A stretch of 64,000 bases of DNA from Candidatus Woesearchaeota archaeon (GTDB lineage Archaea > Nanobdellota > Nanobdellia > Woesearchaeales > ARS49). The notes under the pieces were generated by a model that had not been told where the DNA came from, ran no database searches, and saw nothing but the letters and a program-made list of their open reading frames with translations. This document shows, one piece after another, positions 24,692 through 31,316 of this stretch. The position numbers and the translations under genes were made by a program. The DNA is taken from contig JAFCDQ010000003.1 of assembly GCA_017609645.1 (NCBI GenBank), forward strand, positions 148,846 to 212,845, in the 5' to 3' direction. The stretch's first letter is position 1. Every line of letters begins with the position of its first letter.

Positions 24692-26302
24692 TTAATTTCC
24701 TTTCACTAAATAATTTCCATCTTTGTTTATCACAGTATTTACTGTTTTAATATCAAAAGGATAATATTTTACTATTTTAAGATTCATTTTTGCGGATACT
24801 TTAGTAGCACCGATTGTTGTTCTGCTTCCTGCATATCTTCTGACAAAATTAAAGAAGTTTCCTTGATCTTCTTTTCCTCCTTCAGCTGTGCTGCAAGAGT
24901 CTAAAAAGATAACTGCATCTTTTGCTAACATAGAAAGATATGTGCCAATATCTGTATCAGTTATATCTAATCTTTGATTTTCTTCACGTCCGCCATACAT
25001 TATTCCTTTTTTTGATCCATGTCCTGAAAGAATAAGTAATTTTGTGTCTTTATTTTTCATAGCTTCTATTGTTTCATATACTTGTTTTTCATTTTCTGCG
25101 ATTGCGAGTTTAATATCATAATGTTTCTTTATTGAATTAAAAAATTTAACCATCGTGTTCATTTCAAAAACTTTCATTGAAGAATGTGTTTTTCCTTCAC
25201 TATAAGGCAAGATCCAAACTGCATTTGGTTTTTCTGTATCTTTAAAATTTAATATTTCATCTGTTGTTAATCCAAGTTGTGCAAATCTATAAATTCTCAT
25301 TCCATCATAACCTTTTTTAGCTAATTTTTCTGCATATCCAAACAAATCATAATCTTCTTTTTCTAAAACTTTATCAAAACCATAGAATTTTTCAACTTTT
25401 CTAAATTTGGATATTTGTTCTGAATTTGTAAAAACAGGATTTCCTTTATTGTCTTTAAATTCTAATAATTTCTTTGCAAATTCATAAGTACCTTTTGCTC
25501 TTTTAAATTCGGTTAATTCACTCTCATCAACAAATATTTGTTCTCCTTTTTCATTTTCTAAAGTTAACATTTTTTCTGCATATTCTTTAGTTCCTCCAAC
25601 TGAAAAATAATTTGAAATATAATGATCAAACAAAAGATTTCCTTTTTTTGTTTTTATTTTCATTAATTCAAGAAGTTTTTCATGTGAAATGTTTGCTTTA
25701 TAAAGTTTAATTATGTCTCCAGACAGATCGAGAGAAAACAACTTTGTTCCATCTGATTTTTTTGATTTGGCAAATCGCATTACATAATCTACAGGAACTT
25801 TTGCCTTTGATAATTCGCATATTTCAGAGTTAAAAAATGTAAAATATGAACGATTTCCCTTTTTATCTCTCACTTTTTTAAGTTTAATGGCATAATCAAC
25901 AGGAACTTTAGCTTTATATAAATCATAAATAAAATCTTCAAAAATAAATAATCTATCTTCCTCTTCATCTCTCGCATTTAATAATTTTTTAGCATAAGAA
26001 ACATCCATATCTCCTGGAAATTTGTATCCGTCAATAATTATATCCTTTAATTTTGGTTTTTCCTTTTCTACTTTACCTTCCAATGTCTGCGGTTGACTCT
26101 GTGTTTGAGAAATAGTTTGTATTTGTGGTTTTGTCTGTACTTTCTTTTTTCTTTTTGTTTGCACTTCTTCTTTTGTTTGAGAATGATAAACTGGCTCTAT
26201 AGGGATAATTTCAGTTGTATTACTACAACCTGTCAAAACACTCCAAGCTAATACAGCTGTTGCAAATATTCCACCAACTAATCTTCCTAACTCCATAATC
26301 AC
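24692..26302 (-). CDS. Lipoprotein with six or more internal repeats of about 35 aa and a C-terminal CHAT/caspase-like (clan CD) domain
   Basis: Lipobox LTGC at the end of the signal peptide; repeats of the form LYKAKVPVDYAIKLKKVRDKKGN..F. The C-terminus has KLLILSGHGS...(about 40 aa)...VIFLDSCSTAEGG, the His/Cys dyad spacing typical of CHAT/caspase-fold enzymes. Confidence 0.6.
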   Translation of the reverse strand: MIMELGRLVGGIFATAVLAWSVLTGCSNTTEIIPIEPVYHSQTKEEVQTKRKKKVQTKPQIQTISQTQSQPQTLEGKVEKEKPKLKDIIIDGYKFPGDMDVSYAKKLLNARDEEEDRLFIFEDFIYDLYKAKVPVDYAIKLKKVRDKKGNRSYFTFFNSEICELSKAKVPVDYVMRFAKSKKSDGTKLFSLDLSGDIIKLYKANISHEKLLELMKIKTKKGNLLFDHYISNYFSVGGTKEYAEKMLTLENEKGEQIFVDESELTEFKRAKGTYEFAKKLLEFKDNKGNPVFTNSEQISKFRKVEKFYGFDKVLEKEDYDLFGYAEKLAKKGYDGMRIYRFAQLGLTTDEILNFKDTEKPNAVWILPYSEGKTHSSMKVFEMNTMVKFFNSIKKHYDIKLAIAENEKQVYETIEAMKNKDTKLLILSGHGSKKGIMYGGREENQRLDITDTDIGTYLSMLAKDAVIFLDSCSTAEGGKEDQGNFFNFVRRYAGSRTTIGATKVSAKMNLKIVKYYPFDIKTVNTVINKDGNYLVKGN

Positions 26303-26374: not shown

Positions 26375-26923
26375 ATGCTTCCAAAAATAAAAGAGGACAT
26401 AATCTCAGTATTAAAAAAAGCAATTCCTGCTTTGAAAAAAGAGGATTTTACTGAATTAAGTGATTTAAGTAATAGAACTATTCATGATGCAAGTATTTTT
26501 CAAGATGCTGATTCAATCTCTTGTGCCGTTCTTATGTATTCTTTGTCAAAGTTTTGCCAGCAATGCAAAGAAAAAGATATCTCTCTTCCAAATTTTGCCG
26601 CACAATTAGAAAAAGCTTTAGATCTCTTAAAAAAAGATAATATTAAACTTTACGAAAATAAAATTAAAGAGATTTTCAAAGTTATGAAAAAATATGATGA
26701 AAAAGTTAATATTTATTTTGAAGAAGCAATCAAGCGTGCAAAAATCAAGAAAGCAAGCTGGATGCATGAACACGGCATTAGTATTGCAAGAACAGCTGAA
26801 CTTCTAGGAGTGAGCCAGTGGGATTTAAGAAATTATGTTGGAGTAACTAAAGTTCCTGACAAAAACTTAGGCGGTTTAACAGCAAAAAAGAGATTAGAAG
26901 TAGCGAGGGACTTATTCAAATGA
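26375..26923 (+). CDS. UPF0175 (COG2886)-type antitoxin-like protein with an N-terminal extension of about 110 aa
   Basis: The C-terminal ISIARTAELLGVSQWDLRNYVGVTKVP matches the UPF0175 helix-turn-helix signature. Its stop overlaps the start of the downstream PIN gene (ATGA). Confidence 0.5.
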   Translation: MLPKIKEDIISVLKKAIPALKKEDFTELSDLSNRTIHDASIFQDADSISCAVLMYSLSKFCQQCKEKDISLPNFAAQLEKALDLLKKDNIKLYENKIKEIFKVMKKYDEKVNIYFEEAIKRAKIKKASWMHEHGISIARTAELLGVSQWDLRNYVGVTKVPDKNLGGLTAKKRLEVARDLFK

Positions 26924-27609
26924 AAACTTTAGTTTTTGATACAGGACCAATAATCTCTTTAGCACTAACTAATTTGCTTTGGCTTTTGCCTGAATTAAAG
27001 AAAAAATTCAAAGGAAGATTCTTAATCCCTCTTTCTGTAAAAAAAGAACTTGTTGACAAACCTTTTCACGGGAAAAAATTCAAATTAGAAGCTATTCAAT
27101 TAATGCAGTTGATTGAAAATAAAGTCTTGGAAGTTATTGATGAGGATAAAGTTTCTAAAAGAGCTAAAGAATTAATTGAAGAAGCAAATAAGATTTTCAA
27201 AGGTTTTCATCATAATATTAACATAATTCAAGAAGGGGAGATGGAAGCCGTTGCTATGGCAGAATTATATAATGCAGATGGCATTGTTATTGATGAAAGA
27301 ATTACTAGAACTTTAATTGAACATCCTCCTGGTTTGCAAAAACACATGGAAAGAAAACTGCACACAAGACTTTCTGTAAACAAACAATTATTAGAAAAAC
27401 TCAGTGATCAATTAGATGATGTTTATATCATTAGAAGCACAGAACTTGCTGCAATTGCTTTTGAAAAAGGATTATTAAACAAATATATTATTCCAAGAAA
27501 AGTCACTAAAAGAGATGTGTTAGACGCCACATTATGGGCATTAAAGCTTAATGGCTGTTCTATCAGAAGCGACGAAATAAGAAAAATCAGTCAAGAAGTT
27601 GTTAAATGA
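26920..27609 (+). CDS. PIN-domain protein (COG2405-like putative toxin or nuclease)
   Basis: N-terminal LVFDTGPIISLALTNLLWLL carries the first PIN Asp; acidic residues recur in QEGEMEAVAMAELYNADGIVIDE. 229 aa, translationally coupled to the upstream UPF0175-like gene. Confidence 0.6.
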   Translation: MKTLVFDTGPIISLALTNLLWLLPELKKKFKGRFLIPLSVKKELVDKPFHGKKFKLEAIQLMQLIENKVLEVIDEDKVSKRAKELIEEANKIFKGFHHNINIIQEGEMEAVAMAELYNADGIVIDERITRTLIEHPPGLQKHMERKLHTRLSVNKQLLEKLSDQLDDVYIIRSTELAAIAFEKGLLNKYIIPRKVTKRDVLDATLWALKLNGCSIRSDEIRKISQEVVK

Positions 27610-27643
27610 TTATTTCCAATATTTTTTTATGAAATGAATTGAT

Positions 27644-29950
27644 TTATTTGGAATTAGAATCTTTTTTCTCTATTTTTTTTAAAGTTCTCTCTTTTCCAAG
27701 TTGAGCTAACATATCTTCAGATCCTATTTTTAGAGCTGTTTCATAAGAAGTAAGTGCTTCGTCTAATCTATCTACTCTTTGTAGAACATCTCCTCTAAGA
27801 ATATAAGGCAATGCATCATCAGGATATAACTCTATTGCTCTTTCATAAAACTTAAGTGCTTCTTCCAATTTTCCTGATCTTTCTAAAATACTTCCTTCCT
27901 TACAATAAGGAATTCTTGTTAGAATTTTGGTTTTGTAATCTTCATAATCATCACATTCAGTATTTTCATTTTCTTCTTTTTGTTGTTCTAGTTTTCTTTC
28001 AACTTTTCTTTTAAAAACTTCATAAAATTCTTTTTTCCTTGGCTTTAATTCAATTGCTTTATCATAATATTTATTTGCTTCTTCTAGCTTACCCAATTCT
28101 TCTAACGCCTCTCCTTTACTACAATAATAATGTGCTTTTTCTGGATCTAGGTCTATTGCTAAATCATACTGTTCAATGGCGTCTACTAGTTTACCTAATT
28201 TCCTCAATGCGTCTCCTTTACTACAATAATAATGTGCTTTTTCTGGATCTAGGTCTATTGCTAAATCATACTGTTCAATTGCATCTTTGAATTCTCCTAA
28301 TTCTTCTAAAGCCACTCCTTTTGTAAAATAAAAAAAAGAATCATTTGGTTCAATCTCAATTGCTTTATTATAAAATTCAATTGCTTTTTCAGGATTATCT
28401 TCTTCAATTTCTTGGCCTTTAAGCAAAAAAGAAAAAGCATCTTTTTCTCTCTCAATATTAGAACTTTCACCCCTCTTTTTGAAATCCAAATCTATTACCT
28501 CTTCAGAAACTTTTTGTTCTAATAAAGATGAGTCATCATTTTTTGTTAAAATATCTAAATTAATTAAAGCATCAATAAAATCATCTATCGTTTGATATCT
28601 ATCTTCAGGATAAAATTCTAATCCTTTTTCAATTACTTTTATTATTTTTCCATCAACTTTTGCTTTTTTCAGTGCATTGTAAATTCCCTGAGGACCTGGG
28701 CCTATATTTACTCCTAATGGTTTGCCTGTTAATAACTCATAAAATATTTTGTTTAAAGAAAAGATATCGCTTTTTTCTGTTGGTTTTTTTCCATTTAATT
28801 GTTCAGGAGACATATATAGAAGTGTCCCTTCAAATTCTTTGCTTTGCACAGTCATTATAGACTTTAATGTTTCTGGATTTGACAAAATTTTAGCAAGGCC
28901 AAAATCACAAACCTTAACTTCTAAGTCATCATTTACAAGAATGTTTTCCGGCTTTATATCTGCATGAACAACCCCTTTAGAATGCGCATAAGACAATGCA
29001 TTAGCGACTTGACTTATGATTTTTATTGTTTTTTCTTGGGTAAAATCATTTATCTTTTCTCTTAAATTTGTTGAATTCTCAAAATATTCCATCAATAAGT
29101 ATGGAAATCCCTCTCTTTGAACATGTTCAACAAGAAGTATATTCTCATGCGTTCCTAAACATTTATGCGCCTCAGCTTCTTTAAGAAGTTCGTAACTAGC
29201 ATTAGGTTTTGGGAACTTCATAGTTTTTAAGATATTAGTTTCAGTTTTGACTTTCCAAACAACACCAAAACCCCCTTCACCAATTTTCTCTTCTAAGGTA
29301 TAACCATCAATAATTTGTCCAGAGCTTAAATTTAAAGCTCTTCTTGAGCTTCTTTTAGTTTTAGAAGAAGCAATAAGTTCTATAACATTCAGTTTGCTTT
29401 CTTTTTCAACACTTTCAATATACTTCTTAGCCCAGTTTTCTATTTCTTTAGGAGCTCTCTTAGAGGTTCGTAATTCTGCTTGTAAATTTAATTTAAGTTC
29501 TTCTGTTAATTTATCAAGATTATCAAAAGAATATTTAATCCATCTCTGATTACGCAGATCGGTTGCTTTTTTTAAAGCCTCATCTAAGTCTTGTGAAATA
29601 AACAATATTGGTTTTTTTTGACCAATTAAGAAACCTGTTTCAAGCATCACATTTTCATTTATTTTTTGGCCTTCTTTTTTACTTAAACTCATATCAGAAA
29701 TTCCCATAGTGGCGTACTCTGCAGCAAGTTGGATATCTTCCCAGATAGAACCTTCCCCTAATAAACGCGTAGCACTAAGCACATTTATGCTATATTCCCC
29801 TAAATTTAAACTAGCGTCTTCAATTGCTTTTAGAATTTCTTCAAAATCCTCATTATATTCCTGAGCTACAAATATATAAGGTATTTCTAGCTGAATTTTT
29901 TCTTCTAGTTTAAGTAAATCAAAATACTTCTGTCGAACAACGTTTCCCAT
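27644..29950 (-). CDS. Multidomain signalling protein: N-terminal TIR-like / nucleoside 2-deoxyribosyltransferase-like domain, Hanks-type Ser/Thr protein kinase, C-terminal TPR repeats
   Basis: Kinase motifs GEGGFGVVWKV, HADIKPENILV and DFGLAK. The N-terminus has NENVMLETGFLIGQKKPILFI, which resembles the NDT/COG4271 TIR-like motif. The C-terminus has 34-aa TPR units (AIEQYDLAIDLDPEKAHYYCSKG...). Confidence 0.85.
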   Translation of the reverse strand: MGNVVRQKYFDLLKLEEKIQLEIPYIFVAQEYNEDFEEILKAIEDASLNLGEYSINVLSATRLLGEGSIWEDIQLAAEYATMGISDMSLSKKEGQKINENVMLETGFLIGQKKPILFISQDLDEALKKATDLRNQRWIKYSFDNLDKLTEELKLNLQAELRTSKRAPKEIENWAKKYIESVEKESKLNVIELIASSKTKRSSRRALNLSSGQIIDGYTLEEKIGEGGFGVVWKVKTETNILKTMKFPKPNASYELLKEAEAHKCLGTHENILLVEHVQREGFPYLLMEYFENSTNLREKINDFTQEKTIKIISQVANALSYAHSKGVVHADIKPENILVNDDLEVKVCDFGLAKILSNPETLKSIMTVQSKEFEGTLLYMSPEQLNGKKPTEKSDIFSLNKIFYELLTGKPLGVNIGPGPQGIYNALKKAKVDGKIIKVIEKGLEFYPEDRYQTIDDFIDALINLDILTKNDDSSLLEQKVSEEVIDLDFKKRGESSNIEREKDAFSFLLKGQEIEEDNPEKAIEFYNKAIEIEPNDSFFYFTKGVALEELGEFKDAIEQYDLAIDLDPEKAHYYCSKGDALRKLGKLVDAIEQYDLAIDLDPEKAHYYCSKGEALEELGKLEEANKYYDKAIELKPRKKEFYEVFKRKVERKLEQQKEENENTECDDYEDYKTKILTRIPYCKEGSILERSGKLEEALKFYERAIELYPDDALPYILRGDVLQRVDRLDEALTSYETALKIGSEDMLAQLGKERTLKKIEKKDSNSK
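28101..28269 (-). repeat. Identical 67-nt segment repeated at 102-nt (one TPR unit) spacing inside the kinase gene
   Basis: 28101-28167 equals 28203-28269 exactly; both encode TPR units, which suggests recent unit duplication or gene conversion. Confidence 0.8.
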
Positions 29951-30002
29951 CTTCAGTCCCTACTCTCTAGTAATCATTTAAAAACCTTTCGTCAGAAAAA
30001 GA

Positions 30003-30698
30003 TCATTTTTTCTTATAACCAATACTCTTTACCTTAATCTTCCCAGGAAACCATTTCAATAATAAATCAATATATTCTTCATGAGGTATTGAATTTGCAT
30101 TTGCTGCTTCATTCAAAAAAGATTGTAAATAACTTTGATAAGGTTTTAATAATTTCTCAACATTGTCGTTAGAATAAACTTTTTCTTTAGCAATAACAAT
30201 ACTCCCGTCTGTTGCTATGAACATAATGCCTTCATCTTCAGCCCATTCACAATCTTCTTCAAGTTCTAATGATAATATTCCTTTTTTCTCTATGCGAGGA
30301 TAAGCTGGAAAGAATAGGGGCTCAGCTTTTAATTGTTGAAGTGATAGTATTGTTGTTTCATTGTCAAATAATTGGCTTCCTGAAAATACTTGGTCTATTA
30401 TATTGCTTCCTTTGTCTTCTGACTCTATATCTACAACATCTAATTCTTCAGCATCAAGAACTTCTCTGCAGACTTTTGTATTCTCAAATGCAACCAGGAA
30501 ATTTTGTTCAAAATATTTGTTCAAAAGTATCATTCTTAAGAAGGGCAATACTCTTGCTTCTAAAAGAAACTTCTGAAAACTGTTAAAATTTACAAAAGGA
30601 AATAAATTAATCTCTTTTAATCTATTTAGATTTACTTCATACCCAAAGTTTTTTGACATTAATTGCTTGATTGTTTCCATGATGAAGGTTTTCTGCAC
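30003..30698 (-). CDS. Hypothetical protein (231 aa, acidic)
   Basis: Long ORF with no recognisable motifs; the likely start is the Met at 30680. Confidence 0.45.
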   Translation of the reverse strand: MQKTFIMETIKQLMSKNFGYEVNLNRLKEINLFPFVNFNSFQKFLLEARVLPFLRMILLNKYFEQNFLVAFENTKVCREVLDAEELDVVDIESEDKGSNIIDQVFSGSQLFDNETTILSLQQLKAEPLFFPAYPRIEKKGILSLELEEDCEWAEDEGIMFIATDGSIVIAKEKVYSNDNVEKLLKPYQSYLQSFLNEAANANSIPHEEYIDLLLKWFPGKIKVKSIGYKKK

Positions 30699-30773
30699 TA
30701 TTCATTTATAAGTTTTATGCTGTTTTGTTAACCAAACATTTAAATATGTATTTCTTATATTTTTCTTAAAAAG

Positions 30774-31316
30774 GTGATGCTCATGAAAGATAAAGAATAT
30801 GAATTAGTTCCTGAAGATGAATTAGAAAAGCTTAGAGCAGAAGTCAAGGAACTGAAAGAATTTGAAATTACTCCAACTAAGAAGATGGAGGTTTCTATAT
30901 TAGAATTAAACAGGAAATTAGACAAATTATTAGATGTTTTTGAGAGAGCTTCCAGAGATTTAAGAAAAGAAGAAGGCGGTTTGACCTTCACAGATAAGAT
31001 GAAGCCTATTTCAGAAAAGCTAAATAAAATTTTAGAACAAAATGCTGAATTAGCTTCAGGTATTCTTGCTTTGGCTGATATGATTAAACCAGAAAGAAAA
31101 CTTCCTCAGATGCCAGGTCAATTGCCTAGGCAGCCTCATGCACCCCCTAGAATTCCTCCTCAAGGAAGGATTGAACATAAAGAAGGTTTTCCTCAGCCAC
31201 CTAGTGGTGTTCATATAAGAACTCCTATACCTCCAAGTCAAGGTTTGCCTCAAAAAGCTCCTTTACCTCCTCCTAGCAATTTGCCTCCTCCTAAGAAGAG
31301 GACTTTTGGCTTGTAA
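30774..31316 (+). CDS. Hypothetical protein with an N-terminal coiled coil and a C-terminal proline-rich low-complexity tail
   Basis: LEKLRAEVKELKEF... followed by PQMPGQLPRQPHAPPRIPPQG...PLPPPSNLPPPKK. Confidence 0.5.
   Translation: MMLMKDKEYELVPEDELEKLRAEVKELKEFEITPTKKMEVSILELNRKLDKLLDVFERASRDLRKEEGGLTFTDKMKPISEKLNKILEQNAELASGILALADMIKPERKLPQMPGQLPRQPHAPPRIPPQGRIEHKEGFPQPPSGVHIRTPIPPSQGLPQKAPLPPPSNLPPPKKRTFGL

Follow-up and report, generated by a model that had tools for sequence, protein, structure and literature searches.

Does a gene that joins a nucleotide-cleaving type of domain to a protein kinase and a repeat array serve defence, or does it serve housekeeping? The question is raised by a single minus-strand gene at positions 27644-29950 of a 64-kb stretch of DNA (hereafter the window) from Candidatus Woesearchaeota archaeon, contig JAFCDQ010000003.1. 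The original prediction, made from the letters of this stretch, described a three-domain signalling protein with an N-terminal domain resembling TIR domains and nucleoside 2-deoxyribosyltransferases (NDTs), a eukaryote-type Ser/Thr kinase and an array of tetratricopeptide repeats (TPRs). This architecture holds: the open reading frame (ORF) is exact, Pfam recognises both Pkinase and TPR, and the N-terminal motif lies at residues 98-106. What is new here is that a ThsI-type glycosidase domain is joined to a Hanks kinase and to TPRs within a pair of accessory archaeal genes, and we are highly confident of the domain assignments and the accessory status taken together. The parts of the gene are as follows (aa, amino acids).

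27644-29950, minus strand: whole coding sequence (768 aa, start codon ATG), with N-glycosidase-like domain, Hanks kinase and six units of TPR (ORF list, Pfam)
29456-29950, minus strand: N-terminal domain, aa 1-165, with a predicted TIR/NDT-superfamily fold of the ThsI/BcTpr N-glycosidase type
29633-29659, minus strand: predicted active-site motif N98-E-N100-V-M-L-E104-T-G106, from family conservation
29315-29455, minus strand: linker, aa 166-212, a helical stretch followed by the basic, Ser/Thr-rich stretch SSKTKRSSRRALNLSS (read from the sequence)
28511-29314, minus strand: Hanks-type Ser/Thr kinase domain, aa ~213-480, catalytic residues intact, non-RD
27713-28435, minus strand: six canonical TPR units, aa 506-641 and 679-746, the array being divided by a charged 37-aa spacer
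28053-28321, no strand: tandem duplication of one TPR unit

The length of the ORF and the Pfam E-values exclude a chance reading frame or chance domains. No transmembrane segment was seen when the 768-aa protein was read by eye, and we therefore take the protein to be cytoplasmic.

The N-terminal domain

The N-terminal domain belongs to a distinct family inside the TIR/nucleoside 2-deoxyribosyltransferase ('DRHyd') superfamily. Residues 1-212 alone gave only two Pfam matches, to PF05014 (E 0.0046) and PF10137 (E 0.042), and the PADLOC TIR-effector model matched the N-terminal region with an E-value of 0.003. Searched exhaustively with phmmer, a set of 1.8 billion representative proteins yielded the protein itself, a stand-alone 190-aa homologue of the N-terminal domain (P0002; 47% identity, E 4e-38) and six weaker relatives (E 6e-6 to 6e-4). 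Relatives do pass the Pfam cut-offs, P0003 that of PF05014 (31.6 bits) and P0006 and P0008 that of PF10137 (39.0 and 38.4 bits, respectively). Alignment-based iteration enlarged the family to 169 members; among 32 that were aligned, 28 match PF05014 and 21 match PF10137 (E 0.01 or better), and the only other Pfam match, to TIR_2, is confined to one member. The profile built from these 32 sequences (A3) matches the T. brucei NDT (2a0k, E 8e-4), placing E104 on the motif Glu of the enzyme. Nothing was returned by a word-seeded homology search with the N-terminal domain alone, and nothing relevant by a phmmer search of the PDB.

The fold was modelled with AlphaFold2 using the 32-sequence alignment (pLDDT 92.2, pTM 0.88; a single-sequence model reached a pLDDT of only 49). 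The predicted structure is a five-stranded α/β domain in which helix αC begins at the E104 motif, and its fold matches TIR, NDT and MilB. A Foldseek search with the model returned an NDT (4.6e-5), SARM1 (1.3e-4) and the SfSTING TIR domain (3.2e-4), with further matches to the SPARTA TIR domain, DNPH1 and BcmB. The original prediction had the N-terminal region, of about 150 aa, end at the motif; the motif is where it was said to be, but in the model the domain continues through β4, β5 and a long helix to about residue 164.

Residues 98-106 read NENVMLETG and are followed by FLIGQKKPILFIS. Over 129 family sequences, whose counts are not independent as one subfamily dominates the set, N98 is kept in 127, N100 in 126, E104 in 128 and G106 in all 129, while K113 and D131 are also conserved, each in 126-129 of the 129. 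The family signature runs F-V-x-M-x-F ... N-P-N-V-x-x-E-x-G ... K ... D-L, and it is also found in the N-glycosidase domain of the Thoeris type VIII effectors ThsI/BcTpr. The stretch N100-V-M-L-E104-T-G106 aligns with DNVHLEFG of PycTIR and DNVVFEFG of Cap12, so that the N-V-x-x-E-x-G motif of PF10137 is present, and the Asp of the NDT motif D-x-G-T is an Asn (N98) in the query. Conservation of these polar residues across the 129 sequences speaks for an active site and against a purely scaffolding role, and the existence of the stand-alone P0002 argues that the domain works autonomously. The assignment to an NDT- or TIR-like domain is therefore upheld: instead of a domain that has no similarity to NDT, TIR-like or SLOG families and lacks the Glu, we found relatives that pass the cut-offs, a matching fold and a Glu that is present in all but one of the family sequences.

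Two other identities were considered for the domain and rejected. For a receiver (REC/CheY) domain, PF00072 is matched by no aligned member at an E-value of 0.01 or better, 121 of the 129 family sequences have Ile or Val in place of D86, K139 is not conserved (alignment A1, judged by eye), and REC structures rank below TIR and NDT in the fold search. For a DUF4062 TIR-like NADase (PF13271), the N-terminal domain gave no match at an E-value of 10 or better.

Relation to ThsI and BcTpr

A lead on this family came from the published BcTir/Tpr anti-phage system of B. cereus. Its BcTpr protein consists of a MilB-like glycosidase domain (1-189) followed by a 12-helix TPR; residues I10, M11, N80, P81, N82 and E86 have been probed, and the substitutions N82A and E86A are reported to abolish depletion of nicotinamide adenine dinucleotide (NAD+), formation of the cyclic ADP-ribose (cADPR) isomer and anti-phage defence (bioRxiv 10.1101/2023.05.26.542521). 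The architecture is shared by ThsI, the effector of Thoeris type VIII, which has been described as 'CMP hydrolase + TPR' and is activated by canonical cADPR (bioRxiv 10.64898/2025.12.03.692087).

The N-P-N-x3-E spacing of BcTpr is that of the family consensus NPNVxxExG. A tblastn search located a ThsI-like gene immediately behind a TIR_2 gene on a plasmid of Vibrio coralliilyticus. It encodes 412 aa and matches the Pfam families TPR-S (76.3 bits) and MAP3K_TRAF_bd (37.5 bits), the latter match linking ThsI-type TPR-S repeats to that family, and its residues I11, M12, N81, P82, N83 and E87 correspond to the BcTpr numbering plus one. The N-terminal domain of the Vibrio protein matches the A3 profile in hhalign with a probability of 97.1% (E 4.8e-11) and scores 39.7 bits (A1) and 52.2 bits (A2) against the family profiles, whereas PycTIR, Cap12 and NDT reach only ~16 bits. 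When a bridging profile was built from P0003, P0005, P0007 and P0009, with the query excluded, it scored 77.8 bits against the query and 57.8 bits against the Vibrio domain. The query domain thus appears, transitively only, as a divergent member of the family of ThsI-type glycosidase domains, since the query and P0002 by themselves do not detect the ThsI-like protein; a direct similarity was rejected and the bridged link alone holds. N100 and E104, the counterparts of BcTpr N82 and E86, are both retained in the query.

The kinase, the linker and the TPR array

Pfam PF00069 (Pkinase) matches residues 217-415 with 148.6 bits against a cut-off of 31.7 (E 2.9e-43). The catalytic elements are intact, comprising the Gly-rich loop GEGGFG at 224-229, the β3 Lys K245, the αC Glu E260, the catalytic loop HADIKPEN at 329-336 (D331, K333, N336), DFG at 349-351 and, for APE, SPE at 381-383. 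The description as a complete Hanks kinase is thereby confirmed with one correction, as HAD replaces HRD (Arg to Ala) and the kinase is therefore of the non-RD type; from its motifs it is predicted to be catalytically competent. The closest solved kinase is S. aureus PknB/Stk1 (4eqm, E 1.4e-26). PADLOC returned matches to the anti-phage kinases Stk2, PD-T4-6 and MADS mad6 (E 1e-25 to 3e-51). Because coverage is restricted to residues ~197-480, without a system-specific partner or context, these matches say only 'Hanks kinase', and mad6, PD-T4-6, Stk2 and MkoA were all rejected as system identities since they reflect the generic kinase domain. The Ser/Thr-rich linker that precedes the kinase is a candidate autophosphorylation region.

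The C-terminal part is matched by Pfam TPR_1, TPR_2 and TPR_8 in five or six stretches between residues ~505 and 750, TPR_2 (118.5 bits) and TPR_1 (117.7 bits) with six stretches each and E-values of about 1e-35. Where at least four units had been claimed, the array stands and the count becomes six, delimited by eye. Tandem Repeats Finder reports a period of 102 nucleotides (nt) in 2.6 copies (score 368, 82% matches). Units 2 and 3 are identical at 86/102 nt, both protein copies contain AIEQYDLAIDLDPEKAHYYCSKG exactly, and the two units stem from a recent tandem duplication.

An accessory unit of two genes

The gene is not alone in its accessory status, as is seen by comparison with the 21.9-kb locus L017 of a sister genome, GCA_974442395.1.

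27599-30729, no strand: 3.1-kb presence/absence unit of exactly two genes, kinase and orphan (blastn against sister locus L017)
30003-30680, minus strand: orphan gene, 225 aa from the ATG at 30680 (231 aa from the GTG at 30698), on the strand of the kinase gene and 52 nt upstream of it
29976-29984, minus strand: TATA-box-like element TTTTTAAAT, ~30 nt upstream of the kinase-gene ATG (read from the sequence)

In the sister locus, the gene for a glutamyl-tRNA synthetase (GluRS) is accompanied by three small genes, a PIN gene (DUF3368), genes for a 182-aa protein and a lipoprotein, and those for a threonyl-tRNA synthetase (ThrRS) and ribosomal protein S6e. This is the same neighbourhood, with flanking proteins 85-89% identical between the two genomes, but without the kinase gene and without the orphan gene. 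The blastn alignment covers 26375-27598 at 84.8% and 30730-31090 at 76.4% identity, blocks that adjoin in the sister; 3131 nt between the aligned blocks correspond to 45 nt there, and the junction alignment concurs. No trace of the kinase protein or the orphan protein was found by tblastn in the 21.9-kb sister locus. As both genes are absent from the syntenic site, they form a presence/absence unit. At its two borders we observed an imperfect 25-nt direct repeat (80% identity; 27602-27626 and 30740-30764), which may reflect chance or microhomology in AT-rich DNA; the right copy overlaps the conserved TATA-like region of a neighbouring 180-aa gene.

Archaeal promoters have a general layout that gives ground for calling the TATA-like element of the kinase gene a putative promoter. 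A second TATA-like element, TTATAAAT, lies at 30704-30711 upstream of the orphan gene, where its position favours the start at ATG 30680, and the two boxes precede their respective ATG codons by 27-30 nt. The kinase gene thus probably has its own promoter, with a short or absent leader. The 225-aa orphan protein has no match in Pfam, PADLOC, NCBIfam, PHROGs, the PDB or viral contigs.

GC content is uniform, near 31%, across the window, which also encodes ribosomal protein S6e, PTH2, a GluRS of the archaeal/eukaryal type, ThrRS, TrmB and AsnC regulators and ABC transporters. This gene content marks the host as an archaeon. There are no tRNA or Rfam matches in the window.

Uniqueness of the fusion and the wider family

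The exact 768-aa protein forms a singleton cluster, its source being a 316-kb contig (NCBI, JGI). No other kinase fusion occurs among the 169 family hits or the 1.8 billion representative sequences. When metagenomes were scanned with patterns of the subfamily, the 1.2-kb contig of P0002 was the only one recovered, scans of viral contigs with the N-terminal domain family and with the 225-aa orphan protein were empty, and a scan of GTDB genomes gave generic TPR matches only. Rather than descending from a ThsI ancestor, the fusion probably came about when a free-standing gene for the domain, like that of P0002, combined with a kinase-TPR gene. The gene of P0002, the only close homologue of the domain (locus L003, OMKS01071653.1, 422-994), lies just downstream of the C-terminal part of a membrane-protein gene, the product of which has a tail that appears to resemble an FtsX-type ABC permease.

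Elsewhere in the family, the fusion partners of the domain include conflict-type ones such as AbiJ-NTD5 and REC. Family members are also plasmid-borne, or found in variable chromosomal regions alongside Fic genes, transposases and replication-initiator genes. Locus L005 (8001-16813) holds a gene of the P0010 family followed by LRR-Roc-TIR_2, DUF4062, patatin, TPR and ThsB_TIR genes, and is thus a cluster rich in TIR-type genes; DUF4062 proteins are reportedly TIR-like NADases, a recent finding. The distant P0010-like subfamily combines a coiled-coil N-terminus with a glycosidase-like domain in about 260-295 aa. An unannotated same-strand gene of 187-194 aa precedes P0010-like genes in four loci (L007 5642-6205, L010 6368-6934, L011 162-728, L012 6156-6740), an arrangement suggestive of a conserved module of two genes. 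In prokaryotic conflict proteins, TIR and DRHyd domains have been described as typical effectors at the N-terminus (PMC7159879; PMC8195603).

Comparison with known systems

ThsI and BcTpr share with the query the N-terminal domain family (through the profile links), the N-P-N-x3-E spacing with its essential Asn and Glu, and a C-terminal helical repeat array of about 12 helices on the same polypeptide. They differ in that the query carries a 268-aa Hanks kinase domain between the glycosidase domain and the repeats, that its repeats are canonical TPR rather than TPR-S, that no gene for a ThsB-type TIR protein, the producer of the cADPR signal, is adjacent, and that the host is archaeal. Cap12 (TIR-STING, CBASS) and PycTIR (Pycsar) have the same fold and an N-V-x-x-E-x-G motif that opens helix αC. 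Unlike them, the query stays below the PF10137 cut-off, carries no domain for sensing cyclic nucleotides and has neither a CD-NTase nor a cyclase gene in its vicinity; presumably it also lacks what we take to be the β1 motif of the PF10137 family. With NDT, DNPH1 and the CMP N-glycosidases MilB and BcmB (PF05014 clan) it has in common the predicted fold, a Glu that aligns with the position of the nucleophile and the β3 Asp (D86 in the query). It departs from them in its sub-threshold score, the replacement of the D-x-G-T Asp, the fused signalling modules and its place in an accessory gene.

Mycobacterial PknG is built of rubredoxin, kinase and TPR. The query resembles it in having the kinase followed by TPRs and an extra or regulatory domain N-terminal to the kinase, whereas its own N-terminal domain is of a TIR/NDT fold and glycosidase-like, its kinase is non-RD and its host is archaeal. 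Metazoan ASK1/MAP3K5 (TBD, TPR, PH, kinase) likewise unites a Ser/Thr kinase with TPRs and an N-terminal α/β domain in a single polypeptide related to stress or immunity, and parts of the ASK signalosome have been reported as derived from bacterial conflict systems (PMC8195603). The TPRs of the query, however, lie C-terminal to the kinase and are not demonstrably of the TPR-S/MAP3K_TRAF_bd type. No match of ASK1 to the query was found in PDB sequences or by fold, PF13281 is not among the query's listed Pfam hits, and homology was rejected as neither the ThsI-like protein nor the family profiles gave a match; we therefore treat the parallel as one of analogy. Finally, the layout of effector, switch and repeat sensor is shared with tripartite NLR/STAND-like conflict proteins, in which an N-terminal TIR or DRHyd effector and a central NTPase are followed by a TPR, WD40 or LRR sensor; the query differs from them in having a protein kinase in place of a STAND NTPase as its central switch. 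No vWA-MoxR or other ternary partners were found.

Proposed function and alternatives

We propose, with a probability of roughly one half, that the protein is a self-contained stress or conflict sensor-effector. The domain identities, the conserved residues, the accessory status and the uniqueness of the fusion are established; the enzymatic activity and its substrate, the way in which the signal runs and the role in the cell are inferred as follows. The TPR array would bind a protein or peptide cue, or drive self-association, and this event would bring about a change in the kinase, which would include its autophosphorylation on the Ser/Thr-rich linker or the activation loop. The change in the kinase would release or assemble the N-terminal domain, which would then cleave the N-glycosidic bond of NAD+ or a related nucleotide through E104, with growth arrest or a stress response as the output. 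The kinase may act as a gate, as a second output, or as both, and the co-inserted orphan 225-aa protein is a candidate partner that might serve as regulator, immunity factor or trigger sensor. A more specific form of the proposal, in which the kinase replaces the STAND NTPase or the small-molecule signal in licensing a ThsI-type N-glycosidase, would make the protein a kinase-gated abortive-infection effector with an orphan partner and a prokaryotic analogue of the ASK type; we consider this form rather unlikely.

The original prediction had suggested a defence or stress signalling module rather than housekeeping. This suggestion has gained from membership of the ThsI/BcTpr family and from accessory status, has lost from the housekeeping flanks and from the finding of no TIR partner, and on balance is strengthened but unproven.

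Several observations weigh against a sensor-effector. The query domain itself falls short of both Pfam cut-offs (17.5-18.1 bits against 28.8 for PF05014, 14.3 bits against 24.7 for PF10137), and its subfamily departs from the family consensus in β1 (FVAQEY for FVIMPF) and at the second motif position (E99 for Pro). Searches with the query and P0002 alone miss the ThsI-like protein (hhalign E 0.61, BLASTP not significant). The repeats score 22.2 bits against a cut-off of 27.6 for TPR-S (PF20308), amid far stronger generic TPR matches, and have no significant pairwise similarity to the TPR-S region of the ThsI-like protein (BLASTP, E 0.13), for which reasons a TPR-S identity was rejected. The biochemistry of BcTpr comes from a single preprint, and ThsI has been read as a nucleotide-pool effector, not as an NADase (bioRxiv 10.64898/2025.12.03.692087). 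Presence and absence of the unit are judged from one sister genome and may reflect a gain here or a loss in the sister, and a singleton fusion offers no support from covariation or conserved context. The genes on the flanks are housekeeping ones (ThrRS, GluRS, Pth2, S6e, ABC transporters); no defence island was found at the locus and no other PADLOC system nearby. Pfam detected no TIR family in the neighbouring genes, and a phmmer search with three TIR proteins against the ORFs of at least 60 aa in the 64-kb window returned nothing, its sensitivity for divergent TIR domains being limited.

The main rival sees the protein as a signalling kinase under regulation: the kinase would be the sole output, and the N-terminal domain would be a nucleotide-binding sensor or a scaffold that controls it jointly with the TPR array. 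Its model is ASK1, in which a TBD-TPR module scaffolds and regulates the kinase domain (PMC10972558). Against this, N98, N100, E104, K113 and D131 are kept both in the query and in the stand-alone P0002, there is no sequence or fold match to the ASK1 TBD, and the domain order is unlike that of ASK1. To our knowledge, TIR domains that serve purely as scaffolds typically lack the Glu. We regard a regulated kinase as a possible but tentative explanation.

Less likely, and in our view improbable, is a housekeeping or metabolic protein, that is, an NDT, DNPH1 or MilB-like salvage enzyme fused by chance to an ordinary Ser/Thr kinase. Genuine NDTs and DNPH1 are indeed among the top Foldseek and hidden Markov model matches, the flanks hold housekeeping genes, and small symbiont-like archaeal genomes depend on salvage. 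However, the gene is absent at the syntenic site in the sister genome and is therefore dispensable, and N98 stands where NDTs have the Asp of their D-x-G-T motif. The family, moreover, scores 39.7-57.8 bits against the ThsI-type domain, compared with about 12-22 bits against NDTs, and its members occur in variable regions or on plasmids. A recent decaying or neutral fusion, a single-lineage accident with no coordinated function, would suit a singleton protein on one contig with no second kinase fusion in 169 family hits or 1.8 billion sequences and with a recent duplication in its TPR array, but is more improbable still given a 768-codon frame intact at 31% GC, where stops arise easily, kinase catalytic motifs and N-terminal invariants that are all intact, and a plausible promoter of its own.

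Neighbourhood of the unit

Beside the kinase gene lies a toxin-antitoxin-like pair, which had been cited in support of a defence role.

26375-26923, plus strand: 182-aa protein with a weak C-terminal helix-turn-helix (HTH) match (Pfam/PADLOC scan)
26920-27609, plus strand: 229-aa PIN-like protein (PADLOC PDC-S70, E 2e-10; the sister orthologue has Pfam DUF3368)

This support falls away. The two genes overlap by 4 nt, lie on the strand opposite to the kinase gene and are convergent with it, and the pair is kept at 86-88% protein identity in the sister that lacks the kinase. The PIN/HTH pair is therefore independent of the kinase unit, and we rejected it as part of the system.

Three other features of the surroundings were observed. 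On the minus strand, 24692-26302 encodes a 536-aa predicted lipoprotein with internal repeats of ~40 aa and a caspase-like C-terminal region (PF00656, a weak match at E 0.0025; SGHG...DSCS). It is hypervariable, its 508-aa counterpart in the sister having only the first ~84 aa in common with it (43% identity). Divergent from the orphan gene, the plus-strand gene at 30774-31316 encodes a protein of 180 aa, the N-terminal half of which is coiled-coil, whereas the C-terminal half is very rich in proline (PQMPGQLPRQPHAPPRIPPQG...). With 61% identity to the 169-aa protein of the sister, this protein evolves faster than its neighbours. Between 2405 and 21122 on the minus strand runs a series of co-oriented large ORFs of 2282, 663, 297, 870, 1085, 711 and 304 aa. 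They are nearly devoid of Pfam matches, with sub-threshold Ig-like matches only, in the largest, and at least 12.5-21.8 kb of the run is kept in the sister at ~70-72% DNA identity, compared with 82-85% for most flanking genes.

Significance

Effectors of the TIR/NDT fold are central to Thoeris, CBASS and Pycsar and to plant and animal immunity, where the usual switches are small nucleotide signals or STAND NTPases. The gene described here extends the ThsI/BcTpr glycosidase domain family, which now has stand-alone, REC-fused, AbiJ-NTD5-fused and kinase-fused forms, and the 768-aa protein with its 225-aa candidate partner provides a concrete, cloneable test case. Were the protein merely a regulated kinase, it would still represent an ASK1-like domain combination that arose independently in a prokaryote. 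If it is the sensor-effector that we propose, it would embody a different control logic, phosphorylation-gated depletion of NAD+ or nucleotides in a single polypeptide, and would do so in the archaea, where immune systems other than CRISPR and restriction-modification are still little explored.

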